Source: Bigelowiella natans CCMP2755 (Eukaryota; Protista; Cercozoa). Taken from it: a stretch of DNA of 64,000 nt. The notes under the pieces are model-generated. The model did not search any database and was not told the origin of the DNA. It saw nothing but the letters and a program-made list of their open reading frames with translations. The first letter of the stretch is position 1. Every line of letters begins with the position of its first letter. The stretch lies in NCBI GenBank assembly GCA_000320545.1, contig ADNK01000004.1, positions 37,844 through 101,843 of the forward strand. Reading direction: 5' to 3'. A program made the translations under genes and the position numbers. Below, piece by piece: positions 17,054 through 63,334 of this stretch.

Positions 17054-17628
17054 TAATGCTCTGACAGTACCATGGCCATTCGTTTGAATTGATAAACACA
17101 TAGCGATTATTCCACTCTAGATGATCTCGTGTCTAGCTGCTGTACGCGTAGGCTACACACACTAATGTAGCTGAGGTATGTAGGGCCGTAATGCGTACAC
17201 AGCGCAGCACGGCTCCTCACCTAGTCATGATGGGGTGCAAGTTCACGATGTTAAGATGCGGTGCTGCGTGCTAGGTGCATGAACGCCATCGTTGTGCTGG
17301 ACACAGCCGTAGTCGATGTTTATTGTGCTTGTTTCTTTCAAGCACATTTGTGCAGCTGTGGTGCATTGCATGCAAATCAGTAGTCGTGCTGAAAGGCGTG
17401 CCTGTCATGTCTAGTATCGTATGTCTGATCATTGGAACATGTGTTGACGCCTTTAAGAGGTTCCATATGCACAACATATATGCATCTATGCATCTGATTG
17501 CGCAATCAAATGAGCGCGATCATGAATCGCAACGACGACACGAACCGGCTGACAAAGGCTGAAAAGGACTCCAGAACTGCTGCGCGCAGTGCGCGGCAAC
17601 ATCGGTCGCATGAGGACGCTTTCAAATG

Positions 17629-19300: not shown

Positions 19301-20814
19301 CTGCGGCGAAAATACGATATATTTCTCTCACCGGGTCGGCGAGGGACAGCTCTCTCCTAGGGAGCTGAGACACGAGCTACAAAGTAGCAGGGCAAAATTA
19401 ACAGTCATCCGTTCAGTACAGTAGTAACAATGACATCACTCATGCATAATAGACACCATGTGGTTGGGGAACCTGAGCTCGTATTCCAATGCATCTTTTC
19501 TTTGTAGAGGCATGACGCCTTCAAGGGACCTCGCACCGTAACTTCGATGGAGTGCTCCACTATTCACCAGACACGCAAACAAATGTATAAGCGCGAAACC
19601 ATCACCCTTGAAAATTTTTAGAAAGATTCTGCAGGCGAGAATAGTGTAAATAGGGAGTTATGGGATACAGAATAGAGGGAAAATTCACCGCCCAACACAC
19701 TGTTACTCGCATTCATTCTAGTAATGTGGAGACCATGCACCATACTTCGCCAGCAAGTATGACGATTTCCACGTCCGAGTCAACAAAATTTATTTAGAAA
19801 ATCAGTGCATAGAAAAATGGCTATTGTTGGAATCTGACTCAGAATGAGCGAGGAATGGCACTTCGGGCCCTGGCTCAAAATCTCCCGTCTCCACCATCTA
19901 GACACACTCGAACCTGCGGTATCATACACGAAATTCTTCTGTTAGAATATCAAAGAGTTTATGCCACAAAATTAGAGAGGGTTCGTTGGATGGGTTGTGG
20001 TGAGGAGTCAACGCATACGTCGGCAGGCAGGGCAATGCGGCCATCGTTGGTGGAGCCGGTCTCATTGGTTCTGATCTCGGTTCCCGTTTCGAAAAGGAAT
20101 GAAGAAGAAATTTCACAGAAGTTCTTCCTCGAATTCGCCCATCGTTCTTTCTTTTATTCACCAGAATAATAACAACAATAAAAAAACAAGGCAAGCCATT
20201 TATGATTGATGGCTGAAAACACCGGTTAAAAATGATCACAAAATACACATGGTAACTTCGAATGTAAAAAGGGTCGAGGGGAGAGTCGTACGATAAAAAT
20301 TCCCTGATTTTATCCCCAATACATAAGGACTTAATTTGACCAAAGGACCGCTGTGCAATAGATCTAGATCTAGATCTAATAAATACAATAATAGGAACTA
20401 GTGTCCAACTTTTTGACACTGTGCAGTAATATCGTTTCATCAGTCACTAGATCTAATAATAGAATGCTTCCGACAGGTGTGACATCATAGACTAGATCTA
20501 CTTCTAGGCTAAAATGCAGCCACTTTTTTCTTCTTTTTTTGGTGCACAAGCAGTCCACGGGAAAGAGAAAGAGATTTTCTTGCAGGCGACGACGACGCAG
20601 TGAGATACTTCTCTCAGCCGAAGGTTTCCACTTCCAAAATTACCGGCACGGATCCTTTTGAAACAATTCAAATGTCGAAGAAATTTCTGACGTAGTTAAC
20701 ATTTGAATTAATTGTACTCTTTACGGAGAAACCAGTAGATCTTAACCTGCTCTTCAAGCGTGAGTTGTGCCACTGGTTTGAGTTCCATTGCTTCATCATC
20801 TCGCTGTGGAATTC

Positions 20815-21753
20815 ATGGGTGCGTCGAAAAACGAACATGTAGCAAAGGCCGTGCTTCGTGCAGCGGAGAGCGTATGCTCCGAGGGTCAGCAGGGAAAAGT
20901 TTCCAAAAAGGGCGACCTCCAAACTCCCGGACTCATTTTGCCTTTGGGGCTTGTGGCTCTTGAAATTGCTCTCGTGAAGAGAGTATGGGGCAAGGAATAT
21001 GAGACCATGGACAACGCTTTCGCTACCTGTTCATACGTGTACCCGCTGGTCACTTCTGTCTTGTATCTGTCGCTCATAACTGTAGGCCAGGCATTGATGA
21101 AGAACCGCGAGCCTATGCACGATTTCTGCAAGCCTTGTATGGTTGTCTACAATCTATATCAGACTGTTTTCAACACGTGGTGGGTGGTGATGGTTATTGT
21201 TGAGGTAGCCCGGCTTGGATATCCGCCTTTTACCCTCCCTCTTACCCTGAAGTCTGATCAGTACAACCTTGGTTTCCTCATCTGGCTGCACTATCAAAAT
21301 AAATACCTGGAAATGTTTGACACCGTGTTTATGGTGATGAGGAAGAAGACGAACCAAGTGAGCTTCTTGCATTGTTACCATCATCTTCTCCTCTTATGGG
21401 CTTGGTTTGTGGTATGCCGCTTCGGTTGCGGTGGGGAGGCATACTTTGGAGCTCTGATGAATTCCATCATCCACGTTTTGATGTATGGGTACTACTTCCT
21501 CTCAACCCTTGCAATTCCCGTCCCTTGGAAAAAATACCTCACCAAGCTCCAAATGCTGCAATTTGCTGTATGTCTCGTACACACGCTTGTTTGCTCCTAC
21601 ATCAACCTTTATCCGCGTGTGCTTGCAGCGGTCGAAGTGTGGGTGATGGTAAACATGCTGTACCTTTTTAACGAATTCTACAAGAGAGCTTACGCTGCTA
21701 AAAAGGCCAAACAGAAGGCTGCTGCAGTTGCCTCTTCGAAGAAGGAGCAGTGA
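20815..21753 (+). CDS. ELO: ELO/GNS1-SUR4 fatty acid elongase, PUFA (delta-5-like) subfamily, intronless
   Basis: KYLEMFDTVFMV, QVSFLHCYHH histidine box, NSIIHVLMYGYY, KKYLTKLQMLQF, LFNEFY and a C-terminal dilysine-type ER signal KKEQ; first ATG 20815. Confidence 0.95.
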   Translation: MGASKNEHVAKAVLRAAESVCSEGQQGKVSKKGDLQTPGLILPLGLVALEIALVKRVWGKEYETMDNAFATCSYVYPLVTSVLYLSLITVGQALMKNREPMHDFCKPCMVVYNLYQTVFNTWWVVMVIVEVARLGYPPFTLPLTLKSDQYNLGFLIWLHYQNKYLEMFDTVFMVMRKKTNQVSFLHCYHHLLLLWAWFVVCRFGCGGEAYFGALMNSIIHVLMYGYYFLSTLAIPVPWKKYLTKLQMLQFAVCLVHTLVCSYINLYPRVLAAVEVWVMVNMLYLFNEFYKRAYAAKKAKQKAAAVASSKKEQ

Positions 21754-23082: not shown

Positions 23083-24018
23083 TCAAGAATTATAGTATGC
23101 AAGCAAGTCCTCTGCTGCTCCTGCGCCACTCAAATAAGAAGTTTCGATCCTCCCCCCCGGAATTGCAAGAAAGTCCCCTGCGAATATAAGTCTTGCTTGT
23201 GCATGGATCCTAAATGGCTTTGAAGATGTCGGTGATGGTATATTTGCAGGAAATGCGGCTCCCCATCGGTGCAGTGCAGGTCCATAGCAAGCCCGCCCCT
23301 TCGGTGCCTCGACTCCGATGCTTGAACAGACCTTTTCAAAGGACGAGAGAAGTGTGCCGATGACGCTGCCGTATTATACACCAAAGCCTCAGAAAAAAGT
23401 AAATCGAGTTGACTAACTCAAGGATGTTTGACAGGAAAACGAATCTATTCATAATGCTGATGATGCATAGCTAGTTTACCTTTTCTCGTCCTTTGAATCA
23501 CTTCGTGCACCCATGGCCTCCGCAGTGCCCCCACGCCCGTGTGTCTTAGCGGCAGAATGTGCAAACTCATGCGTCGAATGAACAATTACAGTGTGATAGC
23601 CCCCATCTGTGGTCACTATTATCTTCGCAACCGCGGTATCATTCCGCACATGTAATAGATTAGCCGGGAATTTGTCGAGTGCAGCACTACCCTTCTCAAA
23701 AGCCTGAAGTTTAAGATGCTCTCAGCAAAGGCGTATATTAAAACATCCTTATTGTGAAATATTAAAGCGTATGGGAATACAAATAACTCCAAATTGTGGT
23801 GTCCATGAAACACATCACATAAAGTCACTCTTCCAGATGCCCGAATACGATAAAAATTTACTCAATGTAGCTTGTATACCTGCATGACGACGAAAACGGG
23901 ATCTCCCCGCAGCTGTCCAATCTCATCTAACGTTGCTGATAAGCCCTTGTCGCCTGTGGAACCAGGAGGGCAACAAAGCCAGAACTAATGTGCGTGCATG
24001 TGCGTGCGTGCATGTGTG

Positions 24019-24105
<87 letters not shown>

Positions 24106-24855
24106 CTAGAGCTCGTGCTGCTGTTTCTAAGGGGGGAGGTCCTCCATATATGTCCGTCCATCGCTTATGTACGACTGACGAACTGGTAACCTTTCATGAC
24201 AAATCATACGGCTTTACCTGTGTAAAAGTAAATATAGGCGGAAAATGTACTCAACTGCCAACCAATCGTACTCGCCGAGATCTTCGCCGTTCCTGCCTAT
24301 AAGAGACCACGACTGCGGTAGGTAGGGTACCGTAAGAACTTTGATGCTTAAAAACAACCTGATCACTCAATCAACCTTAGTTTTGTCCGAGAACTTGAAG
24401 TCTTTAACCATAGTTCGGAATCGGCATTTGAATTGTTCATCCTCTAAGCCATTAATCAATCCTTCGCAGAGCGAGGACATGGCAGGGGCCCCCCTGTAGA
24501 ACATGGTTGGCGATGATGTTGGCATGGTAAGCTTCCCGCTGTTCGCATCGAAGCTCCCAGTTATCATGTCCTTCCAGGGTGCAACATGTCCTGTTGCTTC
24601 CATTTCGGATATCATGTTTTTAAATTCCTTCGAAAGTGCATCGAACGCTGGTGCTCCATGGTTAATCGCTAGCCCTTCGAGCTTGGAATCTGAGGATCTT
24701 CTCGTGGCTGTGCGACCCCCAAGACCTCTTCCCATTTCAAATAGCGTTGTCTTGATCGCTGGCGTTCCCGACCCTTTCGAAAGGAGGGAAAGTGTTCGGG
24801 CCAGCGAGCAGCCTGCAACGCCGCCACCGACTATCCCCACACGTGTGGCCGCCAT
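23083..24855 (-). CDS. Renalase-like FAD/NAD(P)-dependent oxidoreductase, 6 exons
   Basis: Rossmann motif VGIVGGGVAG, FEMGRGLGGRTATRR, NHGAPAF, YRGAPAMSSLC, HRWGAAFP, AGDF..GRIETSYLSG; canonical introns. Confidence 0.9.
23990..24101 (+). repeat. Compound (TG)n(AG)n microsatellite in an intron
   Basis: Direct reading of the sequence. Confidence 0.95.
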
Positions 24856-25064
24856 TTGGTGTCTGGTCGTAAACAGACCGGTGATTTTTAGTCTAAAAAG
24901 ATCTGAAATAATCGATGAAAAGCGCATGTCGCAATAATGAAATAGCCTCGATTTAGGGCCATGATAGCGGCCTCAGCGCCTCCTATGGTGCTCACAGAAT
25001 CCGCGAAAATCCATTCCCCAAAACCCAGTTCGCTACAATTTCGAGTGTGACATAGTCGGGAGCG

Positions 25065-38810: not shown

Positions 38811-40995
38811 TCACGTGCGCCACATCGGCTCCGGCGGCTTGCTATCGTCCAAAATGCCGTTTGCATCCCCACGGGTTAACTCGTAGCGCTCCATGGGATG
38901 CTGGTGACGCTGCTGCTGCTGCTGCTGCTGCGGATGGTGGTGATATGGTTGATGACGCCCACCCGCTTTCTGTTGTTGTTGTTTCTTTCTTATCCGTGAT
39001 GAAGCCGATGAAACTTTGCTGCCTACTCTGCCCGCAGCGAATGGCCTGCCCCCAGTTGTTATCATCGCTGAAGATTGCGGCCTGCCGGAAAAGCTCCTCC
39101 CACCAATCGAGCTGATACCAGTGCCAAACTTGCGCTGCTGCTTTTGCCTCCGCAATGCTTTCCTTCTCTTCTTCTCCCCCCCTCCTCCTACTCGTCCCGC
39201 TCCCCCCCCCCACTGTGGCGGTTGATAATCGAGATCCAGTCCCTTCAGCTCCGGCACGTGCGTGCGGCAAAAGAAAAAGCACGTTGCAGATAAAGCGGAG
39301 ATAGCGAGTAGGATGAACCATGGCTCGAAGATGAACCAGCCTGCGAACCTCGACTCGACATAGAAGTGAAGAAAGGGGAATGGCCCGTGGGGAGGCAGCG
39401 CCCCCGCAGCGCTCAGAGGCATGCGCGAGAAGTAGTCGGGGAGGGCAAGGACGTGGTCAGGACCGATGTCCTCCGCCATAACATATTTGTAGAAGAGAGG
39501 GTCGATGAGAGACACAAGGGCTGCGGCCAGGAGAAATCCGAACGCGCATGTGGAGCACGTGAGGCTCCTAAATCGCTGTGAGCTTATCTCCGATGCCAGC
39601 ACCCACGGTATTGTAGAGAGGCCTAGCCCATGCGAGAAGATGTAAAGATGCATCAGTATAGAGGCAATCCATTTCGTCGTGATGGTCAGGTTAACTCGCT
39701 CTATTAAGCGAGCACCCCCCCCACCAGCGGTATGTTGCTGCTGCTGCGGCTGCTGTTGGAGAAACCACAACATCGCACTGGCTAGATCCGAGGAGAAGAA
39801 TGCGGTCAGAAGAGCGGACACAGACATCCCAGCAAAGGAGGCCATGAGCAGCGGTCGCCTCCCCGTTGAGTCAAGGAGAAGCGAGGACACATAGATGCCA
39901 CATGCAAGCACAGCCAGCGCCAGACCAGCCTCCAACGACGGATCATCAGGAAACAGCGTTTCCGGGCCTACGAGAGGAGGCGCGGGGCGCAGGAGCAAGG
40001 AGTACGGCAGCATAATCTGTGAGAGAATCACTAGCGCCATCATTCCGATCCCAGCCTTCCTTTCGGAGAGGGTCAGCCAACAGCATTTGCCTCCCCCTGA
40101 CTCTGGATCGCTGCTGCTAGCCCCGACGTTCCTCTGCACAAAGGTGCCGCCCCCCCCCACACTATTGCCGGCCATGACGGAGCTGGCAGGGTGGGGAGGG
40201 GTGTTTTGGCCAAGCTGATGCAGAGCTACCGAGTCAATAACATTACCAAGTCGCTGAAGCTCGTGCACCGCTGTCCACACATTTCCCGTCGCTTTCAGCC
40301 ATCGAGGGGACTCAGGTACGCATCCGAGAACGACGAGCAGGCTCCCCGCTGTGAGCATGACGGAGATCATGATCTGCACCCAATGGCACACCCATTGCTC
40401 GATGTGGATGAAGTGGCCGTCCGACAGCGGATTTGTTTTGTTGTGGCTCTTCATGATCTAAGAAGTAGTAGTAATTGTACAAGTGAATAGTAGGAAAGGG
40501 AATGTGCTTATATCCATGCATTTGATTGTTTGAGTGTGGGAGTGTATGCGCGCAACGTATATACGTGTGCGAGCGCCGCGTTGCTGATTGGATTGGTAAT
40601 ACCGTGGCAAAGTCCTGCAAGTTTTCGTTGGCAGCGAGCCCTCCCATCAGCCCCAAGACGATGAAGAAGGGGAAAAGAGACACAAAATGACCTCGAAGAG
40701 CACCGGGGGAGATTTCCGACAGATAGCACGGTGTTGCAACGCACAAGATGCCAATGCTCAATCCTATCACTGCCCTTGCCGCCACGAAGATGTAGACCTC
40801 CCTGTCATGAGGATTTTGTTCAGAAGAAGCTGTTAGCTGCGAATGTTTGGGAGTAGGTAGGTAGGAGCGTAGTAGAGTGGTAGTTCAAGTAGTAGCAATT
40901 TTCTCTCCCCAAAAATATGACGATATGATTTAGTTTTGTCTAATTTTATACACTACACACACAACACACACTCACACATACACACACACACACAC

Positions 40996-41036
<41 letters not shown>

Positions 41037-41946
41037 ATCAATAGGCAACAAACATGTATGCGAATATAAATGACTATATTGTACTAATATGTATACACTC
41101 TCTATACTAAATATGCCGTGCGTGAAGTCACGAGGTGAGGTAAAAAACTTCTCCGCCTCCTCTTCCTCTTTTGTGTTTGTTTGGATGTTTTTCGGCGTTG
41201 ATAACGCAGAAGATCGGAATGAAAACAGCTTACGTTGGGTTGGCGTTTGTGAGCTGGCCTATGAGGGACTGATAGTAACCCTCGTCACCCGATTGCCGAT
41301 GATGATGATTACGATGATGATGATGATGATTAAGATGGCCCTGCTGCTCGAGGTGGTTTTGGGAGCCGTAGAACCCCAACCCGACCATTAGCAGCCAGGA
41401 AAGGCATTGCAATGCTGTGCAAAGATAGATCACGCGCCTTCTTCCAAACCTATCGTTTATGCAACGGTGGTGGTTGTATTAGAATACGTAAAGAGTTGCT
41501 TCGTTTCCTCCCCATACCCACCCCCTTTTCTTCGTCTTCCTCTCCTTCTTCGTTCTCCACCACTTTCCTTCTCTGGCTCTACTTCCCGTGTGCCTGTAGC
41601 TTACCAGTCACAGGTTTTTGTGGCCAAAGCAGCCCCAAAGAGAGAGGCAGCAAGGAAACCTCCCTCGAAGAATAAGCCCTCTTGAGAGAATAAACAGCTG
41701 TAACTGTCCACTTCTTCGTTCGATCGCTGCGCTCTGTTGCCACCGCTACTGTCACTGTATTCATAGTCCGCAATCCATACTGTGATAGGGGGGGGGGGGG
41801 GGTGAGATGGGTGAGTGTTGATTTATGACTTGGTTTGTCACACTGCCAGCTGAAGGCAGCAACGACGCAGAGATAGACCAGCAGAAGCACGATGATGATC
41901 CAATTTTTACTACCATTAAATACTCATTCAAGCAACAACATATACA

Positions 41947-41981
<35 letters not shown>

Positions 41982-42583
41982 TCACAAGAGAAGACTGCTC
42001 TTGACTGAGGCCCCCACGCCATGGCAGATACAGCATCCTGTAAGGAGTAGCCACGTCCGTTAATTGATTTGGTTGAACGAACAAACATTCTTGATTACTA
42101 CTACTATTCCTTCTTCCTAGGACTGACCCTCGCGAAGGCAAAGCTCATGCCGATTAACACACTCGTGGCGGAGGCTAGCATGGCAGAGCTCAAACTTGGC
42201 CAAATGGCCTTCCTTCCACTCCTACTTGTCCGTGAGGCTCCTCCTCCTCCTCCTCCTCTTCCTGTGGCTCTACGCCGTGTCGTCAACCTGGAGTAGTCAC
42301 CACTAGTTGTTTCGTCGAGAATGTACCGCCTAGCAGCTAGTAGCGGATCCTCTTCGCTTGGTGCGTTGCGTCGGCGCTGCCTCTCTCCATTTGTCCTTAT
42401 CGTAGCCCTGAAACAATCAACAAGCAACGATTTCATCCTTTGTTGATTGATACGTATATCAACGAGGCAAGGCTCGATGAATGACTGGTCGCCCTGCTGT
42501 GTGGCATTATTCACCGTTTCGCACCAGGTAGGTCGAGAATGACCGGTCTCAATCGTCGTCATCATCATTATCGCCATCACCAT
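38811..42583 (-). CDS. MFS sugar porter family transporter (GLUT8/ERD6-like); 5' end uncertain, possibly fused to the upstream NEK kinase
   Basis: Motifs DWFGRR, ARAVIGLSIG, YLSEISPGALRG, PESPRWL, LDSTGRRPLL, GLSTIPWVLASEI, VPELKG; dileucine motif SEEDPLL before TM1. Confidence 0.9.
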
Positions 42584-42806
42584 ATAAGAATAACAATCAT
42601 TATGATATCATTTGTGGTGCTGCTGCTGCTCTTTGTCGAGGATGTTGGTCTGCCTCGAAGCTGCTGTCTCCGATTGGCTTCGGACCCATCACCACGCGCA
42701 CAAGCATTAAAACAAACGCTCGTCTGGAGGAAACAACAACGCGCGAAGCAGCGTACGACTATAATAATTACATGCTGCTAGTGCTGCGGCGCTAGCTGCT
42801 TAATTA

Positions 42807-43315
42807 TTACCCTTTGCTTTTGCCCCACTTCTTGGCGTCAAGGATGCTGCCGGTGCCACTCCCGCCACAGCTCAACACACCACCACTTGCGCTGCTACTC
42901 AGCATTCCTCTGTCCAGCGCCAGGTAACTGTCCCCGCCCTGAAGATAGAGCCAATGATGAGAATAATTGTGAAAACGGTGGTGAGAGAGAGAGGGACAGA
43001 GTGTCAGCCAGTAGTGATGAAGACTGACTGCACGGAGTGATAGATCATAATCATCATTATCATTATCAACAGCATATATTGCAGCTGCTAATTGTTAATT
43101 CTAGTATCAACGAATGACGCTAAAGGGGAGAGGGATGATGGTACATACGTCCATGCCTAGCTCTACTCCTAATCTGCGTGCGTTCTCCACCTAATCGATT
43201 GGTATAGAAGCAGGAAATAACATCGTCTCATGAAGTGATGAAGGAAGAGTACCAACTATAAGCCAAAACATAAATATAACGGGCAATAGCGCATCCATCA
43301 TTGTCGTCCACCATT

Positions 43316-43346
<31 letters not shown>

Positions 43347-44331
43347 GTAGCAGCAGCAGCGGCACCCAACCTGTAGGTAGGTCATGTTGCAAGAGAGGCT
43401 GCCCAAGTATCGCGCTAATGCCTTCCGCACCACGGACTTTTGCAGAATCTGACCAACACTTGGACGTTTCTTCGCGCTCACCTGCTCATCATTCAACCGA
43501 CGTATTATTCTATGAACATGATGATGATTATGATGATGATGATTATGATGATGATGATTATGATGATGATGATGATGACGATGAGCATGTCGTCGTTGTT
43601 ATCTATATTAACACCTGCAGCAGCTCATCCACCAATTCGCAAATTTCTTTGCTGTAACCCTGGGGAAGCGGGGTGTATTTTCGGGTCAAAATCTGCCGCT
43701 GGAGGACCTATCGTGGCAACAAGGATAACAATATACACAAATGCACTCAGACACACCATCTCTCATCAATGGTCGTTGCTGCCAAAGCAGAGCGAGGTGA
43801 GAAGAACTTGTTTTTTTTCTTCTTCTACTACTACTACTACTGGAGGTAATACTTGAATGCTTGTCTGTTCTCCGAAGGCTTGCCTTAGCGCTACCATTTC
43901 ATAGAGTATGCAGCCCAAAGACCAAACGTCCACTTTCTTTGTATACTTTTGCCTGCGTTGAAGCATACAGCAATATAATATTATTCACGCACCTCCCCTC
44001 TAAATCCTTTCAATCTTCGTGGTCATAGCCAGTATTAGCATCATCCCCATTAGCACTACCTGAGAAAGAGCTCGGGTGCGATGTAGTTCGGAGTGCCGCA
44101 GAAGGTTTTGGCGAAGTCATTTACATTTTCGAGTGCCTTTGAAATCCCAAGGTCACCTGATAATGAATGTGAGGTACATCTTCTTGTTGTTGAGATGCAA
44201 AGCATGTGCGAGCGTACATCCAACTAGATTTATTACCGACAACGACGACGGTGTCATTTATAAAAATGTTCTTCGGTTTAAGATCCCGGTGGATGATGTC
44301 CTGAAAGAAAGAAAATTGTGATGATTAAATA

Positions 44332-44367
<36 letters not shown>

Positions 44368-44386
44368 ACACATAATATATGTGTAT

Positions 44387-44435
<49 letters not shown>

Positions 44436-44452
44436 CATAGTTTAGTATAGAT

Positions 44453-44500
<48 letters not shown>

Positions 44501-45185
44501 GTTACCCCCCCCCCCCCCCCTCGCATGTTGAAGTTTTTCGATTACTGCGGTGCTCACCTTTCTATGCAAGAAGTAAACGCCAAAAAGGATCTGTGTGAAA
44601 ATCGTCAGCACAACCTCCTCGCTGATAATTAATAACCACAGAAAGTTAGTGTTGTACAAATTTAAAAAAAACATATTCCTATATAAGATAAAATCAAAGT
44701 TGGTTTTGTAATTCAAAAGTCTGTTATCGATGCCTTATAGGTTCCTTCCTCTCTCGCTGCTGCTCGATGTAGCTCCCAAGGTTACCGTCCTGAGAAGAAA
44801 GATCGTGATTTAGGAAGCATCTCAAGACATGTTCAACTTGGTGAAGAGAGAATAGCAGTTTATCACCTTGTAGAACTCCATAACAATGCAAAGATGGTCG
44901 TCAGCGTGAAATGAGTCGACGTAGGTAACGATATTCGGGTGGTGCAACTGGATAAAAGTAAAGTAATCCATATTAATTTCTTCAAAATAGAGCGCATTTT
45001 TGCAACAGTTTGACCTTGGAAAGCAGTTGGACTTCGTTATAGTAATATCGGGCCCTCTTTTGGCTCGCTCTTGACAAGTTCATCCGTTTCATTACAAAAA
45101 CTCGTCCATCGCGTTTCCTCCTCACGAGGTGTACGACACCGAAAGTTCCTCGATCGAGCTCCCCCGCGACACTGTACGATTCCAT
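42807..45185 (-). CDS. NEK: NEK (NIMA-related) Ser/Thr protein kinase, ~11 exons
   Basis: LDRGTFGVV, FVMK, NEVQLLSKLHHPNIVTYVDSF, LCIVMEF, HRDLKPKNIF, GDLGISKAL, CGTPNYIAPE, DVWSLGCILYEM, KRPSVGQIL. Stops at 42807 unless spliced onward; one GC-AG intron. Confidence 0.92.
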
Positions 45186-51088: not shown

Positions 51089-53102
51089 TTAATACCACGT
51101 GTTCGCGCGGTCCTTGTTACTTTCAGTCTTGGTTGGTTTGTAAATGATCTTATACACAAGGTCATCCTTGCCCTCTTCGTAGTCGATGACGACGTCGTGG
51201 TCGTCGGTCAGCTCGTTACCCACGAGCTTACGCGACAGTGTTGTCACAACATGCTTCTCAAGATATCGCTGCAGAGGACGTGCACCATACGCTGGCTCAT
51301 AGGCTTGCTCGATTGCCCAATCAGCAGCTCTTTTTGTGAGCTCGATGTTAATATTGCGGTCTTTAAGGCGACCGCCCATATCGGAGACGTGCTTCTGGCA
51401 TATTCGGACAAGATCCTTGGGGACCAGCGGGTTGAACATGATAATATCCGAGAGACGATTGAGGAACTCAGGGCGCATCTTCTCGCGCACCTTCGACATG
51501 ACCATTTCCTTGGTTGCTGCAGGCATCTCACCGTCTTTCATCATGTCTGCGGCGCGCAGAAGGTGGTCCGCACCGATGTTGGAGGTCATGACGAGGACAG
51601 TATTGGCGAAATCAACGGTGCGGCCCTGAGAGTCGGTGAGGCGTCCATCGTCGAGAACCTGCAGCAGCACATCCAGCACCTTTCCATGTGCCTTCTCGAT
51701 CTCATCGAGCAGGACGAGGTTGTATGGTCGTTGTCGTACGGCTTCGGTGAGCTGCCCTCCCTCCTCATGTCCGACGTATCCAGGAGGGGCACCGATCATC
51801 CTAGAGACGGAATGAGCCTCCATATACTCGGACATGTCGATTCGAACCATGTGCTTCTCATCATCGAAGAGCTCATACGCAAGTGCCTTTGCGAGCTCCG
51901 TTTTACCGACACCAGTGGGCCCGAGGAAGAGGAAGGCACCTGTCGGCTGGCTTGCTCGACCCATGCCGGCACGGGATCGGATCACAGCATCCGAAACTGC
52001 TTGCACAGCCTCCTTCTGGGCCACAACACGTTTCTCGAGGTGTGTGGGCAGGGCGAGGAGGCGCGCGCGCTGCGACTGTGAGAGCTTGGTAATGGGAATA
52101 CCTGTCCAGTGCGAGACGATTTCCATGACTTGTTCAGGGCCTACTTCCTCCTTAAGAAGAGGAGCCACGCCTACACCTTCGTCTCCTTCATCGCTCTTCT
52201 CTGCCTTCTCTTTATCTACATCAGCCTGGAGAGCCTTTACTTGTGCCTCGAGAGTGGGGATGGCACCGTAGCGAAGGTCAGCTGCGGTATCGTATTTGCC
52301 CTCTCGTTGTGCGCGATCAGCCTTGGATTTGAGGTCTTCAATCTTCTTTCGGATAGAACGAAGTTGAGTTACACGTCCATGTTCGGCCTCCCACTGAATC
52401 TTTAGTGGCGTCAATTGCTCGCGCACATTAGAAAGTTCTGCCTCGACTGCTTTCAGTCTCTGCTTCGAACTGGATAGTATTATTATTAGGGGAGAGGACG
52501 AAGCAAAGAAAAAGTTAGGGAAATAAGCAATTTGTTTATGCTGTTGTTGTTGTTGTTGTTGTTGTTGTTGCATCTGTAGTTGATGTTGTTCCAACTCCAC
52601 ATGATTCCCACTTCTTCTTCTTCTTATGCCTTTTTATCGTTTGCTGATTTGGTTGTGTGTATCATTACGCTTTGTCTTCCTCTCGTGTGAGCGCGACACG
52701 TTCGATCTCGAGCTGCTGCTGGCGACGTTGCAGATTATCAATGGTCTCTGGGGCGGAGTCCAGCTGGACGCGGGTCTTAGCACAAGCCTGGTCGATAAGA
52801 TCGATAGCTTTGTCTGGCAGGAATCTTTGCGAGATGTACCGTTTTGACAGCGAGGCGGCAGCTACCAACGCCTAGATTGTTGAGTAATGGGGGAGGGGGA
52901 GGAAGTTAGGAGAAGGAGAAGGCAGGATCGACTAATTCCCCCCCCCCCCCCCCCTCTCTCTCTCTCGCTCGCTCATACTCGCTCACTCACTCACTCACAA
53001 AAAATCTCCCTTCTTTCTCCTCCTCTCATAGTGTGTGTGTGTGTGTTTGTGTATGTGATAATCATCTCATCACCATACAATAATGGAGTACTTGGCAAAC
53101 GA

Positions 53103-53141
<39 letters not shown>

Positions 53142-56100
53142 AAATCAAATAATTCTACCGAGTCCATGATTCTGACTCCATGATGCGCCTCGTAGCGATC
53201 TTTAAGGCCTCTAAGGATAGAAATGGTGTCCGGCACGGTTGGCTCTTCAACATAAACCTTCTGGAATCGTCGTTCAAAAGCGGCATCCTTCTCAACGTGA
53301 GCTCTGTATTCGCCCAGCGTCGTAGCACCGATGCACCGCAGCTCCCCTCGGGCGAGCATAGGCTTCAGCATGTTTGCTGCATCCATCGAGCCTTCGGTTT
53401 TACCGGCACCCATTACCTAAAGAGTAAGAAATGAAGAGAAGAAGTTTAAGGAACAAAGATGGTGGGACTGTCTGCGAGTATGTGGATGATGATAAGCATC
53501 TTTGATGATGGTGATGATAATAACGATGTTGGTGATATGCTACCAGATGGATCTCGTCAATGAAGAGGATGATTCTTCCCTCTGCCTGCTTTACCTCGTT
53601 CAATACCTAACAAGTAGCAGAATTAAATAGTGCCAATACGACTAGAATCAATCATACCGACGACGACTTTAGCGACGACGTACATATATCTTTGCACCGA
53701 TGACATTCTTCTTATGTTCCAAATGTATACATTATGTAAGTGATAAGAAGTACCCCTTTTATCCTGGATTCAAATTCTCCACGAAACTTAGTGCCTGCTA
53801 CTAGTAATCCAATATCTAGCGACCAGACCTACATGAATTTATACAATATATATGCATATATATTATGTATATGCGTGTGTGTGTGTGTGTGTGTGTGTGT
53901 CAGTCATATACACATACATGATGAGCTTATCGCAGATTCTATTCTTCACTCGATTAATTCCACCACAACCACCACCACCACCACATTCCATAACCACAAC
54001 TATCATATAATGCTCAGGGCAGTACTTGTTGTTACCTCTGCGTTAAGCGATTCCGGAACATCTCCGTTCACGATTCTCTGCGCAAGGCCCTCAACAATCG
54101 CAGTCTTCCCGACACCAGGCTCTCCAACGAGCATGGGGTTATTCTTTGTCCTACGTGCCAAGATCTGGATGACTTGCCGAATCTCCTCGTCCCGACCAAT
54201 CACAGGATCTACTTTGCCTTTCGTATGTTTTTGTTCAAGATGAAGCAAAGCAACAACAACACACATGTGAGTAAGATAGTTATGTTAAGCCTGCTACAGA
54301 AACTGTGAAAAGAGACGAGTGGGGTAGATATGTAGGACTAGTTAGGTTACTCACCATCTCGCGCTTGTTTGCACACGTTGATTGCATACCTAATGACGCC
54401 GATGGTAGTTTTAAGAAGAGAAGAAGGCGAAGGAGGGAGAGGAGGAGGGTAAGGGGATTATTCGTGATGATGATGATGATGAGAATGGAGAAGAAGGCCT
54501 TTGATACATAGTTATTATTAAGACAAACTTTTCAAGTGCATCCCACTGATCCTCCGCATGTTCATCTGTAACTCTTTGCCCGGCTCGCATGTCCTAATAA
54601 GACGTAATGAAGAAGCAGCAGCAAAGTACGGTCAGATCAGAAAGGACGCCGTGAGAGCTGGAGATAATGAAAAAAAATGCTGCAATTATTGGAGTTAACG
54701 CTCTGGTTGCTGCCTCCCTCCCTCTCTCTCCCTCCCTCCTCCTCGACGCCATCTTCATTTTACGCAAACACTGCGTGCTTCTGGTGATATCTCACTGCTG
54801 CTAAGAAATACTACCCCCAGCGTGGATTTGAAGATGTCCTTATCAATGCCAATATCGTCGCGTACGAAGTTCTCCATCTCTGAGAGGGCGATAAGCACGT
54901 GGTCCACGGCGATGTGGCTATCTCCATTCTGATGAGAATTCAGTCAATGAACAATGATAATAAGCAGCTCAACGTCTCGATCATGGTGGTCGTTTGGTGG
55001 TGGTGATCCAAATGATTGATGATGATAGCAGCCATTGCTGGATTCAGTGTGCCGCATCCCTTCCCACAGTAGTATTATTACCTCCTCTCTGAGCTTGTTT
55101 GCACGATCAAGAACACGGAAGGATCGTGTACTCAATGCGACGGGGTCATCGTTTTGCCTACTTGCCATCTGACAAGAATTGATACATCAATCGTGCGAGG
55201 AGAAGGGTGTGTCATAGTGGTATTTACTTGAAATTCGTAAGGATTTAGAAAAAAAGGAGGAAGGGAAGAAAAGAAAAATTAAATGTTCTTTTGCGAGAAG
55301 AAAAAATCGATAGTCTTGAGCTATAGCAAGCAGGTCTTATCATTACCTTCGGTAATTTATCGATGACATCCTTAAGTTGCGCGACCACCGCGTCTCGATT
55401 CTTTCCAATCTGAATGATTTCAAACGACGAGAAAAACATATAAGCATAGCACAAGAGGTTGGGGGTGCAATACGAAGCGTATTAAACGATTTTCGGTGAA
55501 AGCGACAACGATTAGACGACTACAAACCTTCGTTAGAACTCGAGGGCCAAGATCGGTTTTGTTAAAGATCATGAAAGCAATATGCTGTGTTTCCACAAGT
55601 GCGTTCATATTTTCGGTGGCGTATGTCTGAGCCTCGACCAACATCTATATAGAAGGAAAAACCATACCATGGAAATTACCTCACTTTGAAAACAGACTAT
55701 TAAGGGGTGGCGGTGGTAAATAAAGAGCATATTACATCGTTGGTGGCATCGGTAAACTTGTAGTTCTCTCGTCCACCGCGAAGTACCATTAACTTCGAGT
55801 CCTGAGCAACAGAAAATTCGTTTCAAACATTTCACAAAATAAGTATAGGCCGAGATGGGAAATCTGCATAATAAAGGGAGAAATACTGCCCTGACCACTC
55901 TTCTGCTGCAAGTGCGAAACAAAATACGTAGCTGCATTGATAAACTGTATCTACCATGACTGATCTACTATTGTCATTGCCACTTCTTCCCCTAGCATCG
56001 CTGCTTCTACTACCTGCAGACTGGATCGTGAGTACGATGATTTTGGCGATTTTTGAACCCGACTTTGGGAAAGACTGCTGTAGGCACTCCCCTCTCGAGA

Positions 56101-56680: not shown

Positions 56681-57744
56681 TATCCTTGATAATATGATAT
56701 GTTGGCGAGAGAAGTGGGGGGGGGTAGACTCCGGGCTTCTCTCTGGTTTTTCAGACACTAATGATGCTTGAAATATTTACAGATATCGGAGATAAGTACA
56801 ATATTTATGAAATACGACAACAAAAATAGAACTCGATAATAATAATTCTACGACATTTGGTACACGGTGTTTTGGCTACCGCGCACAGGTGCGTGTGCAA
56901 AGGCCCGTGGAAGCCGAGAAGAACAAAGGAGAAACTGTTTGTTGCGACAATATTCAGGAGTTGACGCATGGGAAAAATATCATGAAATTGCACTTGTTTA
57001 ACCGTCGAAATTCGAAAACATGATGTCAGATTCCACAACTAAGACATGCAAGTATGATCGTCGCATCCTCAAATTTCACAGGATCTATCGATTTCGCAGG
57101 TGTTGTCTGCTCTCCTCGAAAAATTAAGCTCTGGAGAGGCACGAGTGGATGATTTGAAAAACCAACCTCTTTTTCTTCATTGTCGCTAACATGAAATATT
57201 ATTAATTTTATTGAATTTATTGGTATGAAGTATGTTTTTGCATGTAAAAAAGGCGGAGAATTCCCAAACGAAATTTCCGAACTATAAATGTGTGTTGCTT
57301 AAATTTTGTGCACATTTAATAGATGAAGCAACAAATACATCCACATCCAATAAAAAATGCCCTGCATTTATAGTTGCTAGGCATTTGGCGCTGCTTTCGG
57401 CTGGGCTCAGGCGGGAAATCGATGAATGCATTAATTTTGAAAGATGATGAGAGAACACGCCTACGACTACCATGTCAATTTTGCTCTTTTTAGGTTGACG
57501 CAGAAGGATTATAACCACAACTTTTTTCGTTCAAAAATATTCATTCATTCTTCTCCCCTTCTCTGATTCGACACGGTGCACTTTCCAAGCCTTCCAAAGA
57601 GAGGGTACGCGACAGCCCTCACATTCTGTTGGGGAACGGTGATTTACCTGAAGGGAGAAGGCAATTGTTGTTTCGGAAGCAGTTCGATAGAATTTCAGAA
57701 GATTTCTAGTCGAACTGTTCGAAATTCATAAAGAGCAAAGACGA

Positions 57745-59307
57745 ATGGAGAAGCGAATGAAGAGTCGCTATGGAGAAAAAGCAGAAGAAAATTATCTTCG
57801 TCGAAAAAGTGACGCCGCCACTTGCAGCCGGGTTGAAAGCACGGTCGATGTAGAAATTTATCCTGTCGTTGCCACGAAAGAAAAATGCAAACTTCAGTCA
57901 ACTAAGGCATGTGCAAGTAGCATTACAGATAGATTCAAGGGAGAGGTCAATAGTATCACAAACGATTCTCCGAAGGACCGCCTAAAACTTCCGAAGAAGA
58001 AGAGAAAACTTAGATTCATCTCTTCGGGAATTGGCCTTGAAGCAAACATTTCCTGTAAACCATCCCTGAAACAGCGAAAATTCACCGTGAGAGGTATCAT
58101 GGCCATAACTGGTGTGAGGATCCTAGATTACCTTGACATTGAGGAAGCCGCCATTTGTCTCGATGTAATGAAGTTGGAAGAGCATGACAATTTGTGGTCC
58201 CATCTCTTGCAGAATATTGTGTCCGTGCGTGTGAAAGGAAACCGTCATGCTTTCATTCGAAGGTTCAATGAATGGAACTTTGTCGCAGAACACGGTTGGC
58301 TGAAAAAGCATCGAACCCTACGAAAATCATTTTTCCCTATTTTGTGCAACTGGCTCGTAGAACTCCATTTTGAATTGTTTGGGGATCATGCTCGTAAATT
58401 GATGTGCCGCAGTCCTTTAAACCCTATCCACCTCGCTATGAAGTACTTGTTTCGTTTCCTGTCTCTTGAGGCTAGTATAACAAGTAGCCGTTTGCAGCTA
58501 GTCGGAGTGTCATGCTATCAAATTTCGGTGGAATATGCTCTCGGTACTACCGAAACAGCTAAACTTGATTTGGACGCGAAACGATATGCTTACTATACAG
58601 ATAACGCATACACACCAGAAGAAGTCACAAACATGACTGCCAATATTAAGCTAACACTTCAGGATCAAAGAAAGTTTACACCCAGTGATATACTGGAGGT
58701 GTTCACACCAACTATGGCTCTGAACTCGTTGATAAGATCATTATCTTTGGAATCAAATATTCTTCTTGTTCTCTTTGCAAACTACCTCGTCGACCTCTGC
58801 ATGCATGACACATTTTTCTCACATATGCTTCCATCTGAGATAGCTGCCTCTGCAGTTTTCCTTGCATGTGAAATGGCCGAGCACGATTGTTCTGGCACCC
58901 TTCGGACAACAATTCTTTCGTTCTGTTACAGAAAATCTACTCATGAACTTCAGCACATGATAGCAACGATGAGAAAACTTTATGATGGGGCATGCATGCA
59001 AGAAACTGGGACGACAATATCAAATCAAATTCTTCCAAAGTATTCAATGGTAATCAAGCACTATTCGACGAAGTTTATGGAGTGGATTCAGGGGAAGTTA
59101 TCTCCAAAATATAGACAATGCCTTTTCAAAGACGAAAAGACAAATTTCAAAAGAGGAGAGTTTCGAGAGGCACTGTCGAACGCAGGGCAGCAGCAACAGC
59201 AGCAGCAACATGCTTCTTCTCAAGGTAATACAACTAGGACATTAAGTAAAGCAGCTATCAGCGAAAAGAAGATCGGCTGTAAAAAGAGAAAAATTGATGC
59301 TATCTAG
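57745..59307 (+). CDS. Divergent cyclin (cyclin N and C folds) with a possible F-box-like segment, intronless
   Basis: FPILCNWLVELH, IHLAMKYLFRFLS, RLQLVGVSCYQI, YYTDNAYTPEEV, ANYLVDL, LPSEIAASAVFLA; upstream ILDYLDIEEAAIC...LWSHLL; NLS-like KKKRK and KKRK. Confidence 0.8.
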   Translation: MEKRMKSRYGEKAEENYLRRKSDAATCSRVESTVDVEIYPVVATKEKCKLQSTKACASSITDRFKGEVNSITNDSPKDRLKLPKKKRKLRFISSGIGLEANISCKPSLKQRKFTVRGIMAITGVRILDYLDIEEAAICLDVMKLEEHDNLWSHLLQNIVSVRVKGNRHAFIRRFNEWNFVAEHGWLKKHRTLRKSFFPILCNWLVELHFELFGDHARKLMCRSPLNPIHLAMKYLFRFLSLEASITSSRLQLVGVSCYQISVEYALGTTETAKLDLDAKRYAYYTDNAYTPEEVTNMTANIKLTLQDQRKFTPSDILEVFTPTMALNSLIRSLSLESNILLVLFANYLVDLCMHDTFFSHMLPSEIAASAVFLACEMAEHDCSGTLRTTILSFCYRKSTHELQHMIATMRKLYDGACMQETGTTISNQILPKYSMVIKHYSTKFMEWIQGKLSPKYRQCLFKDEKTNFKRGEFREALSNAGQQQQQQQHASSQGNTTRTLSKAAISEKKIGCKKRKIDAI

Positions 59308-60130: not shown

Positions 60131-61264
60131 TAGGATGCTGTATATATAGCCGTGTGTGCGTGCGTGTGTGCGTGCTTGTGTGTGTGTGTGTGGTGTGTGA
60201 ATATACGCTTTGTATCATAGGGCTACCTTCGCATATCTACCTGTTAACTAATTATCGGTGCTCTACATATGATTAGCGTAGGTCTATGATGTGAAAAGAT
60301 ACGTGTACTAGAAAGTGTAATATACTGCTGTTCGGAGCCATATGACATCTAATGGCTCGACCTTATCACGCGCTATTTTTATCATCATTTGGCACACGAC
60401 ATCTTACACTAAAACTCGTACATCTTGGGTATTAGTTTAACGATTATACATAATTGTTTCAGATATTGGATTGCAAGTAATGTTTTAAACGTTACTCAAC
60501 CTGCGATATTCATTCTTCTCTTCTTTTGCTGAGAAAATTATACTCAAAAGATACTTGTGATATTTGCATTATGGACATAACGTCACCAACCAAGCTTCCG
60601 AAGTTCTCAGATGTATATTTTGCGCAGCAGCGATGCTTAGCATGACAGTGTGCACGCGACAGCGTGCATAATGTCATCGGTACGGCACGACAGAAGGCTG
60701 AGAGCGCAAAACAATTATGACTATGTTTATCTAAGTTTAGACATTTGTCTGAGCGTGTTTCATCATCATTCGCACCAGAGTTTGAATGCTTATCGTAAGT
60801 GAATGCTTATCGTAAATCTAGAACTGAAAGGATATATTCAAGCTCCATGAATTAAAGATATTGTAGAATAAATCGAATGGAGATAGCATTCACGCTTCGA
60901 TCAATGCAATGATTTTTTGTCCTCCTCCTCCTCCTCCTCCTCCTCCTCCTCCTCCTCCTCCGCTTCCTGCTTCTCTCACCTTGGTGAACTTTCGGTCGTT
61001 CAACCCTCTCCGAGCGAATCGTTGCGTTCTCTCGGATGAAGATGCTGGAGCGACGCCTTCGAAATGCCCTCAATTTCTGTGTTGCGTCACACATACTAAA
61101 CATGCTGGGAAAGTTGGCCGAAATAAGGCAGGAAACATGCTCTCATTCCAAAAATGGCCTGGGAATGAATCCTGCGTCAAGGTCGCACTCGCTCTGCTGA
61201 CGACAGTCGTACAGAACGATGGATCGCACCTGGCTTTACGTGGCCTGAACGCAAGAGGGCATCG

Positions 61265-63334
61265 ATGAGGGATGGGATCTCCTCCGGGGGGGATTCAGTT
61301 AGCCCGGGGAAAAAGAGATCTTCAAATGTACGGCATCGATCGGGCCGTGTGCAGAGGGCTCAAAAATCGAGCACAGGGGGAGCATGGAATGACTTCTCGC
61401 CAAAGTCAAAAACACGGAGTCTGCACATCTACCTGCTCATCATCTTTTCAGGGGCTTACATCGGGTGGGCACTGTTCACAATGACACAATATGACAGAAA
61501 TGGGCAAGAACCAGTTGCTCCCCCGCATCCCGCCCCCAAAATTCTGAAACCTGTTCCCAGAGGGGAAAAAATAAATTCAGAAAACACAGTCGGGAATATG
61601 CAAAGAGCCGGCGTGACCAAAGTTGCATCTTCTCAAGAGAAGAGGGAATGTGTAATGTGGGCGATCAATCTGAAAGGGGAACGATACACACACGATTGGT
61701 CTGCGTTGACGTACAAAGGTCTCACCTCGGATACCTTCAAGACTTTAACGGTAATGGCGGGCAGCGAAAAGGACCCAAAGTCAGGACTTTGTACCAGCTA
61801 TGGTCAGGACCAAAAAGTCCTGATTACAGAAACAGGTTATCTCGTTGGAGCCCTTTCCTGCTCGAATCAAGAGATTACAATTATCTCAAAAAGTAGCTCA
61901 CCCAGGCCATGTGAGCCTGAGGACGAAGCTCGAAAGGAGACCAAGGGGAAATATTCTGCCTACTATAAAGGACCTACTCGTTGTAAATATATTTATGAAT
62001 GCAACAGATGCGTTCGACACGGCTCGTCGGACACATCACCAGACAAAATTATAACAGGAGAAGATCCCAAGACGAAGTGCGTATGGTGTCCAAGCGCGAA
62101 CTCATGCATGGCGTATAGAGATGGCTCGGGACAGTTTCCATGCCCTGATGCTGTGGGCAAAGGTGGAGGATACCCGGTAGATAAGTGCCCAGGAAGCTCC
62201 GGGAAGAAATATTTGTCCTTTCAGTGGAACAACGGCCGAGTCAACAATAATATGGTTTCGTGGGCTGCTGCACTAGCGGTGGGCCAGCACTTAAACCGCG
62301 TCGTGATACTAGCACAACCGATACAAAAAGGGTCAGGCTTGAAAGGATACCAAAATGGAGACCCAAACCATGGCAAGTCAGCTTATCTTGGAATCCTCGA
62401 GGGTATGTGGGATTTGGAGTTCATACGTGAAAATGGGTTCGAAATCATCCTTGAAACCGAGTTAGAGGACAGCGTGCTTGATGTTGCATTATTCAAAACT
62501 CCCGCAGAGTGCGTTGTAAGAATAACAGAATTCCCTGACCCGGAAAAATATAAAGACTGCAAGGTGGTCCACCTGGCAGATCCTTTTAGATTCAAATCCT
62601 TTCGTGCCCAGAAGCCAAAGGAATTCATCCGGCCAGCGAAGTGGATTCGAGACGCCAGCGAACGTTTAATTAAGGAAAAAATGGGCACCCAATCGATTTC
62701 CGTTACCGTGCACCAAAGGCATCATAATTGGGGCCATGCTGATAAACATGGCTCCAAGTTTCTATGCCGAGGAATCCTGAAGAATATTCACAAGACGCCT
62801 GCAGGTCAAGATTACAGAAACGGCGTCAGGAAATGGGGACAACCGGAATCTGTGCAAAAGCGCATGCTAGACAACACACAGCTATCATGTGCCATGAATT
62901 ACGAAGAGCTACAGACGGTTGCAGCTTACTGGAAAAAGAAAATACCGGAGCACTTTTTCCTCGCTTCTGATAGGGAAGAGCTTGACCGTTACCAGGATAT
63001 GCTGAAAAACGGGGCAGTAACCATCGAGGAAGCTGATTATGCTCATATGCCAGAGATAAAGGAAGTTCTCCAGAAGCATCTTTCGTTTGCTTTTGATTGC
63101 ACCGAGAAATATTGTGCGAATTTGAAGAAAATCAAGCAACTAACAGGTGTATATCTGGATATGTGGGGCATGGTATCCGGTGATTTCTTCTTCGGCGGAT
63201 ACTACAGCACAATGTCTGACACTGTATGCTATTGGCGTGGGTGGAATAAAATGAACGCCTCAAACATCTGCTTCCTTCCGATGCGATTGCAGAAGAAATG
63301 GGTACGCCTTGGAAAGGACATTGACGATCAATGA
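61265..63334 (+). CDS. Type II membrane glycosyltransferase: PSI-like Cys domain plus O-fucosyltransferase-like (GT-B) catalytic domain, intronless
   Basis: 689-aa ORF; TM segment LHIYLLIIFSGAYIGWALF; PSI pattern C..CNRC..CVWCP..C..CP; fucosyltransferase-like motifs GRVNNNM, TVHQR, FFLASD, D..DFFFGGYYSTMS. Confidence 0.8.
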   Translation: MRDGISSGGDSVSPGKKRSSNVRHRSGRVQRAQKSSTGGAWNDFSPKSKTRSLHIYLLIIFSGAYIGWALFTMTQYDRNGQEPVAPPHPAPKILKPVPRGEKINSENTVGNMQRAGVTKVASSQEKRECVMWAINLKGERYTHDWSALTYKGLTSDTFKTLTVMAGSEKDPKSGLCTSYGQDQKVLITETGYLVGALSCSNQEITIISKSSSPRPCEPEDEARKETKGKYSAYYKGPTRCKYIYECNRCVRHGSSDTSPDKIITGEDPKTKCVWCPSANSCMAYRDGSGQFPCPDAVGKGGGYPVDKCPGSSGKKYLSFQWNNGRVNNNMVSWAAALAVGQHLNRVVILAQPIQKGSGLKGYQNGDPNHGKSAYLGILEGMWDLEFIRENGFEIILETELEDSVLDVALFKTPAECVVRITEFPDPEKYKDCKVVHLADPFRFKSFRAQKPKEFIRPAKWIRDASERLIKEKMGTQSISVTVHQRHHNWGHADKHGSKFLCRGILKNIHKTPAGQDYRNGVRKWGQPESVQKRMLDNTQLSCAMNYEELQTVAAYWKKKIPEHFFLASDREELDRYQDMLKNGAVTIEEADYAHMPEIKEVLQKHLSFAFDCTEKYCANLKKIKQLTGVYLDMWGMVSGDFFFGGYYSTMSDTVCYWRGWNKMNASNICFLPMRLQKKWVRLGKDIDDQ

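Follow-up and report, generated by a model that had tools for sequence, protein, structure and literature searches.

A single minus-strand gene in a 64,000-nucleotide (nt) stretch of DNA from Bigelowiella natans CCMP2755 (contig ADNK01000004.1, forward-strand positions 37,844 to 101,843; ‘the window’, in which all positions below are counted) encodes, in one chain, a NEK-like protein kinase followed by a membrane protein having the sugar-porter fold within the major facilitator superfamily (MFS). That the two halves are fused as one gene is confirmed here by comparison of sequences, with the kinase-transporter fusion of the original prediction now supported by one open model of 1,154 amino acids (aa) as well as by four clusters of similarly fused relatives, P0002 to P0005. 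The likeliest reading of the resulting protein, to which a probability of about 0.5 may be attached, is that of a transporter-derived membrane sensor which, through its state, would regulate the NEK-like kinase joined to it.

The model has 17 coding exons totaling 3,465 nt, with its sole stop codon found at the end and with the join across intron 11 being in frame. Eleven kinase exons lie within 45185-42811 and six membrane-protein exons within 42407-38811, i.e., as follows (TM, transmembrane helix):

38811..45185, minus strand: whole gene, a NEK-like kinase and sugar-porter-fold fusion, 17 coding exons (open model, plus colinearity, first motif through last, with P0002-P0005)
43371..45185, minus strand: kinase domain and the next helix, exons 1-9 (Pfam Pkinase on single exons; NEK1 and NEK2 are the closest solved structures)
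45185-45015, minus strand: exon 1
44947-44867, minus strand: exon 2
44789-44734, minus strand: exon 3
44621-44558, minus strand: exon 4
44300-44237, minus strand: exon 5
44156-44060, minus strand: exon 6
43952-43853, minus strand: exon 7
43707-43615, minus strand: exon 8
43481-43371, minus strand: exon 9
42811..43190, minus strand: exons 10-11 (43190-43149 and 42938-42811), the conserved post-kinase helix, a variable linker, and a conserved WGK at the end
42408..42810, minus strand: intron 11, 403 nt, GT-AG, phase 2, the kinase-membrane join; holds the apparent TAA and an apparent ATG (42583)
42128..42407, minus strand: exon 12, linker, acidic dileucine box, TM1
40603..42037, minus strand: exons 13-16 (42037-41980, 41779-41605, 41449-41386, 40836-40603), two invariant cysteines in outer loop 1, TM2-TM5, A motif of the N-domain
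38811..40457, minus strand: exon 17, outer loop 5-6, TM6, PESPRW, intracellular helices, TM7-TM12, tail, PMWR box

The kinase frame ends AAA GG/GTAATA (the slash marks the end of exon 11), with the apparent stop, TAA at 42809-42807, overlapping the GT donor at 42810. The sequence facts initially claimed, i.e., a stop found inside a donor along with a 403-nt GT-AG intron that joins the halves in frame, therefore hold. The join also is more than the chance event that had been allowed for, as its donor scores 7.3 bits on a matrix made from the 15 other introns of the model, which only 1 of 334 decoy GT sites equals. The acceptor at 42408, a CAG behind a T-rich tract, is weaker (2.1 bits, a score reached by 62 of 364 decoy AG sites) and is one of five that are in frame and open, that is, 42438, 42408, 42396, 42381 and 42357. 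A profile of the relatives gives 1277.1 for 42396 versus 1274.9 for 42408. The former, though, is an AAG, and as CAG or TAG closes all 16 introns of the model, 42408 is the preferred choice, if not a proven one; it is as well the only CAG among the four top-scoring joins from the 42810 donor. The spacer between WGK and the dileucine box is then 20 aa, versus 18, 20, 16 and 10 aa in the relatives. That the junction is spliced in B. natans is inferred and very probable, and a minor kinase-only isoform may exist besides the fusion.

Were the membrane half to be made separately, then its first in-frame ATG would be at 42583, 224 nt beyond the stop (approximately 220 base pairs had been estimated). 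That ATG is rejected as a true start, since including the 59 residues that precede exon 12 raises the score on the relatives’ profile by no more than 1.8 bits. As to the CTAG-rich patch suggested previously as a potential real 3′ end, intron 11 has two CTAG versus seven in the 811-nt 3′ flank. The first transporter introns had been described as microsatellite-type, which is true of intron 13 but not of intron 12, where there are none, and intron 11 contains no such run.

Elsewhere in the model, the donor of intron 3, at 44733, is a GC, and every relative has both of the exons that this intron joins. For introns 13 and 15 the ends carry an uncertainty of a few codons, with 41374/40802 better suiting the relatives in the case of intron 15. 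Exon 14 (41605-41779) encodes an 18-aa acidic and serine-rich insertion, absent from the four relatives, that falls between the pair of cysteines invariant in outer loop 1, and other choices of intron 13 ends would make this insertion shorter.

The relatives were reached from the last exon, which as a query returned two proteins from among 7,998 candidates scored, namely P0001, which is that exon itself, and P0002, a 934-aa complete transcript open reading frame (ORF) with both Pkinase and Sugar_tr domains. Of the 7,996 candidates scored in turn with the non-kinase part of P0002, 37 gave hits, namely four fused proteins (one of them the query), P0001, and 32 ordinary sugar porters, the last at no more than 59 bits. 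The combination of Pkinase with Sugar_tr, which the original prediction proposed looking for among protist transcriptomes, was found, that is, in P0002 (934 aa), P0003 (984 aa), P0004 (1013 aa) and P0005 (1046 aa), three of which are labelled complete transcript ORFs. Alignment of the window model with all four begins at the first kinase strand and runs through to a C-terminal PMWR that they share; identity is 50-56% overall, 78-90% over the kinase, and 40-48% over the membrane half. The P0003 cluster holds a genome model from Amorphochlora amoebiformis, GAB5357934.1, which is identical at 983 of 984 residues. P0005 is labelled Norrisiella sphaerica (Chlorarachniophyceae, taxid 91329), and its cluster includes a 1,077-aa form that is complete at the N-terminus. 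Chlorarachniophyte organism labels cover these two of the four relatives. Chimeric transcript assembly was considered and rejected, as a common domain order and common linker motifs are found in the four clusters, which are at 51-57% identity, with a genome model existing for one of them.

No stand-alone orthologues of either half turned up other than P0001 and P0038, the two public pieces of the window locus. P0038, labelled B. natans jgi/Bigna1/125404, is the only shorter protein found over the post-kinase region (66 hits among 1,543 candidates). It is letter-identical to the window’s kinase exons and uses the 42810-42408 intron, then loses frame within exon 12; it also skips exons 3-4, around the GC donor, and so misses 40 kinase-core residues that every relative has. 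P0001 consists solely of exon 17 and is public as a separate 547-aa protein. Given P0038 and P0001, the public reference annotation therefore splits one gene in two. As P0038 is ab initio by its label, it amounts to an independent prediction of the junction rather than evidence of transcription.

Among the best 150 matches of 1.84 billion representatives, the only orthologues were P0003, P0005 and P0038, with tandem kinases, or single ones at about 40%, making up the remainder. That list extends down to 190 bits, and a NEK-like kinase joined to a related porter elsewhere should therefore have ranked. Of 213 kinase hits, none matched the membrane-half profile (best expectation, E, value 1.5), and close kinship with other multi-domain kinases is rejected on this basis, along with the finding that the four having hydrophobic stretches carry other domains. 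One protein seen in passing, P0145 (1,198 aa), combines two kinase domains with apolipoprotein L matches. JGI metagenome contigs, when scanned using the alignment of the four proteins, gave 592 pattern matches, with no relative among them. The fused family, as judged from these searches and with rhizarian sampling being thin, so far appears confined to chlorarachniophytes. A literature search found no paper on this kinase-sugar-porter family, though genome papers on chlorarachniophytes and their supplements may list the gene.

The kinase half is best described as a divergent NEK-like kinase that is probably active. Its catalytic residues are present and invariant in all five proteins, i.e., K33, E51, HRD-K-N (128-135), DLG (147-149), the activation-loop threonines and APE. 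The glycine loop reads DxGxxG, with Asp replacing the first glycine. Identity over the kinase is 81% among the five, with 160 of 230 positions invariant. By sequence, its best matches among solved structures are NEK1 (E 8e-53) and NEK2 (5e-51), followed by NEK7, MARK and PLK3 at about 1e-37, with the next families at 3e-37, and a PknB-type model matches at E 1e-33. A fold search likewise places NEK2 and NEK1 at the top, and the NEK assignment originally made is supported on both counts to the extent of a NEK-like kinase. In a quick tree of 55 domains (the five fused, 45 top-scoring full domains, none of them a named NEK, and five PLK-like outgroup rows), the fused kinases form their own clade (Shimodaira-Hasegawa-like approximate likelihood-ratio support of 99) on a long stem, outside of the 45 best hits.

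NEK1 and NEK2 resemble the window’s kinase as best sequence and fold matches, and in having an N-terminal kinase domain. They nevertheless share only about 31-42% identity with it, and the window’s clade differs as well in its long stem, its partly PLK-like activation segment and its Asp in place of the first glycine. NEKs have a C-terminal coiled-coil regulatory region. In the window protein it is a 12-helix membrane domain, beginning about 110 residues after the kinase, which replaces the usual soluble tail, and placement on a membrane would be unusual for NEKs.

The membrane half is predicted to adopt a 12-helix GLUT/XylE fold made up of two six-helix halves. This prediction comes from an AlphaFold model of P0002, based on a 50-row alignment (four fused proteins, 31 of the 32 porters and 15 short kinases) in which TM1 of the porter rows is misplaced. 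The model has a mean predicted local distance difference test score (pLDDT) of 78.9 and a predicted template modeling score of 0.63, and it displays twelve long helices along with three short intracellular ones at 598-630, with linker, outer loops and tail of low confidence. Its fold matches GLUT3 (4zw9; TM-score 0.83) and also GLUT5, XylE and PfHT1. The nearest ESM Atlas clusters are eukaryotic SLC2/GLUT-, ERD6- and hexose-transporter-like (0.97). All four relatives score above the cut-off of Pfam Sugar_tr (95-131 bits) and below that of the sugar-porter model TIGR00879 (83-108 versus 237.8).

The A and sugar-porter (SP) motifs of such proteins constitute, according to the available text of PMC7898563, a cytosolic network controlling the switch between outward and inward states. 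Both A motifs, in loops 2-3 and 8-9, retain G and R in all five fused proteins, with the acidic residue retained in four and five of them, respectively. PESPRW following TM6, R and E of TM4, E of TM10 and R of TM11 are kept in all five as well. The second SP motif, PETKG following TM12, is PELKG or PELTG in four proteins and degenerate in P0002, its Thr being lost in all five.

Ahead of TM1 is an acidic dileucine box, EEDPLL (42355-42338; aa 354-359). A dileucine-bearing porter had been predicted, and the motif, [DE]xxxL[LI], occurs in all five proteins as EEDPLL or EDEPLL, with the box 76% identical among them. Identities among the five, figures that are coarse given so few sequences, are otherwise 84% over the intracellular helices (32 of 44 residues invariant), 81% over the post-kinase helix and 34-47% over the membrane helices. 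Conservation is also high at two outer loops (the two cysteines and FIH..Q) and at a C-terminal box, and, of the 132 residues that are invariant within the membrane half, 70 are specific to the family. The tail itself (38811-39230) is Gly/Gln/Arg-rich, of low complexity and just 17% identical, and closes with that box, in which Tyr, Thr and PMWR are invariant and which is a candidate element for docking or for sorting.

It is within the sugar pocket that the family departs from ordinary porters. N325 has a pocket role in XylE. Nine other XylE residues (Q168, Q288, Q289, N294, W392, Q415, F24, Y298 and W416) make up its pocket, and their mutation severely reduces function, per the text available of PMC4137407. 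Two of these nine, Q289 and W392, are kept by the window protein when positions are mapped by sequence alignment via P0024, with identity to solved structures at about 17-18%. Across the five proteins W392 is kept in all, Q289 in three, F24 in one, and the other six in none. The 32 ordinary porters, by contrast, keep Q168 in 31, Q288 in 24, Q289 in 31, N294 in 27 and W392 in 29. N325 is N in 27 of 32 ordinary porters versus none of the five, and the Q415 position is N in 26 of 31 matched porter rows. That is, five of seven discriminating polar positions (equivalents of Q168, Q288, N294, N325 and Q415) are replaced in all five fused proteins. The proton-site D27 position is S, N, N, N and D in the five, versus D in 31 of 32 porters, while R133 is kept throughout. 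Certain replacements are held in common, i.e., P at Q168 (5/5), P at I293 (5/5) and H at F383 (4/5), so the pocket seems remodelled rather than simply decayed, with family-specific invariant or near-invariant Pro, Ser, Pro and His found along with the retained Trp. With five of seven polar positions replaced while the intracellular helices are as conserved as the kinase, the ‘sugar transporter’ label of the original prediction stands for fold, which is GLUT/XylE-like, and is doubtful for function.

The kinase precedes TM1, and the N-termini of MFS proteins lie in the cytosol. The kinase, as presumed at the outset, therefore should be cytosolic. Under the sensor reading, the membrane half would still alternate between outward and inward states, as the retained cytosolic salt-bridge network suggests, and would bind some non-hexose ligand or instead read its outer loops, with the intracellular helices then relaying conformational state to the kinase. 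By virtue of its dileucine box, the protein would sit on an endosomal, lysosomal or vacuolar membrane. This reading is favored because the switching network is kept, because cytosolic helices and outer loops are invariant, and because the hexose pocket is lost. A more specific version, tentative and somewhat short of an even bet, is of an MFS-fold receptor Ser/Thr kinase in which a non-transporting yet conformationally active internal-membrane domain reads a luminal cue, by way of its conserved outer loops or its remodelled pocket, and switches the NEK-like kinase via the intracellular helices, which by analogy would be the Snf3/Rgt2-Yck partnership of yeast in a single chain, evolved in chlorarachniophytes.

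Several points weigh against a sensor. The changed pocket suits a new substrate as well as it does a loss of transport, with W392 and R133 found in all five proteins and Q289 in three. The pocket mapping is a sequence alignment at low identity, and F24, Y298 and W416 vary in the control porters as well and do not discriminate. Snf3 and Rgt2, as hexose sensors, reportedly keep a transporter-like pocket, so that pocket loss argues against sugar sensing too. The kinase-membrane linker, 50-60 aa, is variable (25% identity) and of low pLDDT, permitting loose tethering. Invariance, lastly, is easily reached with just five sequences from one class.

The main rival, itself doubtful, is a working transporter of something other than hexose, with activity or trafficking controlled in cis by its own kinase. 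The complete 12-helix fold speaks for such a carrier, as do both A motifs, the SP motif, R133 and W392, all kept, and the SP motif is found also in MFS families with other substrates (available text of PMC7898563). The pocket changes, too, are shared and non-random (P for Q168 in all five, H for F383 in four), and conserved cytosolic S682, T692 and T1134 could serve as targets in cis. TM7-TM12, however, are the least conserved helices (34-46%), with conservation peaking instead at the cytosolic face, and orthologues vary in the residue at the Q289 position and at that of N294, which is unexpected given one conserved substrate.

Improbable, by comparison, is a membrane half serving as passive anchor and sorting device, which would keep the kinase at an internal membrane with no conformational coupling. 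The degenerate pocket fits this view, as does a well-conserved dileucine box found beside so variable a linker, but an anchor has no need for an A/SP network, for invariant outer loops, or for intracellular helices as constrained as these. A conventional hexose or pentose carrier with attached kinase is very improbable: Sugar_tr scores, GLUT/ERD6-like Atlas neighbors and GLUT3 as best transporter fold match all point that way, but TIGR00879 falls far under its cut-off and most of the discriminating pocket is lost in every family member. Least probable of all is secondary fission in B. natans into two genes (kinase stop at 42807, transporter start at 42583), as, despite the existing stop and in-frame ATG, the middling acceptor and the two public models, the leader to exon 12 adds almost no score, the donor outscores 333 of 334 decoys, splicing across 42810-42408 is already part of the public kinase model, the spacer length fits that of fused relatives, and the nearest relative, its kinase 90% identical to the window’s, is fused.

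Fusions of transporter with kinase are of a known kind, and no eukaryotic MFS example was found. TRPM6/7 are eukaryotic channels having a C-terminal atypical alpha-kinase in the same protein, with folds unrelated to those of the window protein. A functional model for the sensor reading is Ks-Amt5 of Kuenenia, in which the site is remodelled, transport is lost and binding triggers the fused kinase, according to the text available (PMC5764959). The likeness is of a nutrient-transporter fold and a kinase in one chain, with an altered binding site. Ks-Amt5 nevertheless is bacterial, with an Amt fold and a C-terminal histidine kinase, versus an MFS fold and an N-terminal Ser/Thr kinase, and coupling in the window protein would be by analogy. 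Yeast Snf3/Rgt2 are non-transporting glucose sensors with a sugar-porter fold which signal with Yck1/2 and, as with the window protein, combine that fold with Ser/Thr kinase signaling and conserved cytosolic tail elements (available portions of PMC10876965). They differ in having a separate casein kinase, a glucose ligand and a plasma-membrane location, as opposed to a covalent NEK-like kinase and a replaced hexose pocket. GLUT6 and GLUT8 are sent to internal membranes by an N-terminal dileucine motif (available text of PMC6929180). Along with ERD6-like proteins they share the sugar-porter fold, and GLUT6/8 share as well the dileucine motif ahead of TM1, but these proteins are without a kinase, keep the hexose pocket and transport sugar.

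The architecture had been put forward as an unfamiliar one, which stands to the extent that no eukaryotic MFS case was found. It fails in that ESM Atlas holds bacterial Pkinase plus MFS clusters, from Actinomycetota and Acidobacteriota (feature score 0.84-0.85; a lead only), and the bare order of kinase then MFS is not, because of these clusters, unique. They share with the algal protein just the presence of Pkinase and MFS in one chain, being MFS_1-type, 626-955 aa long and absent from the best 150 full-length hits, whereas the algal kinase is NEK-like; independent origins are likely. One bacterial cluster has an FHA domain and a sugar-transport label, and the clusters are apparently uncharacterised. 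No functional paper on bacterial Ser/Thr kinase-MFS fusions was found, and the accessible text of PMC2877116 is without mention of MFS.

Among 106 ORFs elsewhere in the window few are named by Pfam, with three consecutive plus-strand hits at 17-22 kilobases, two of which are weak:

2-2632, minus strand: legume-lectin-domain ORF, at least 877 aa, runs off the window (Pfam)
4215-6029, plus strand: ORF, 605 aa, without convincing Pfam match
13775-14077, minus strand: MSP domain (Pfam)
17275-17559, plus strand: reduced folate carrier, weak (Pfam)
19128-19421, plus strand: acyl-CoA thioesterase, weak (Pfam)
20782-21750, plus strand: fatty-acid elongase (Pfam)
23086-24972, minus strand: flavin amine oxidase (Pfam)
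51092-53416, minus strand: ClpB-type AAA protein (Pfam)
57691-59304, plus strand: cyclin (Pfam)
61169-63331, plus strand: ORF, 721 aa, without convincing Pfam match

The Pfam-named neighbors have no apparent functional link to the fusion.

A split and frame-shifted public annotation such as that of this locus would hide the fusion from domain surveys. Eukaryotic receptor kinases normally are single-pass, and transporter-like sensors normally signal via separate kinases. A natural MFS-kinase fusion is a single-chain system for the question, open for transceptors, of how alternating access becomes phosphorylation.

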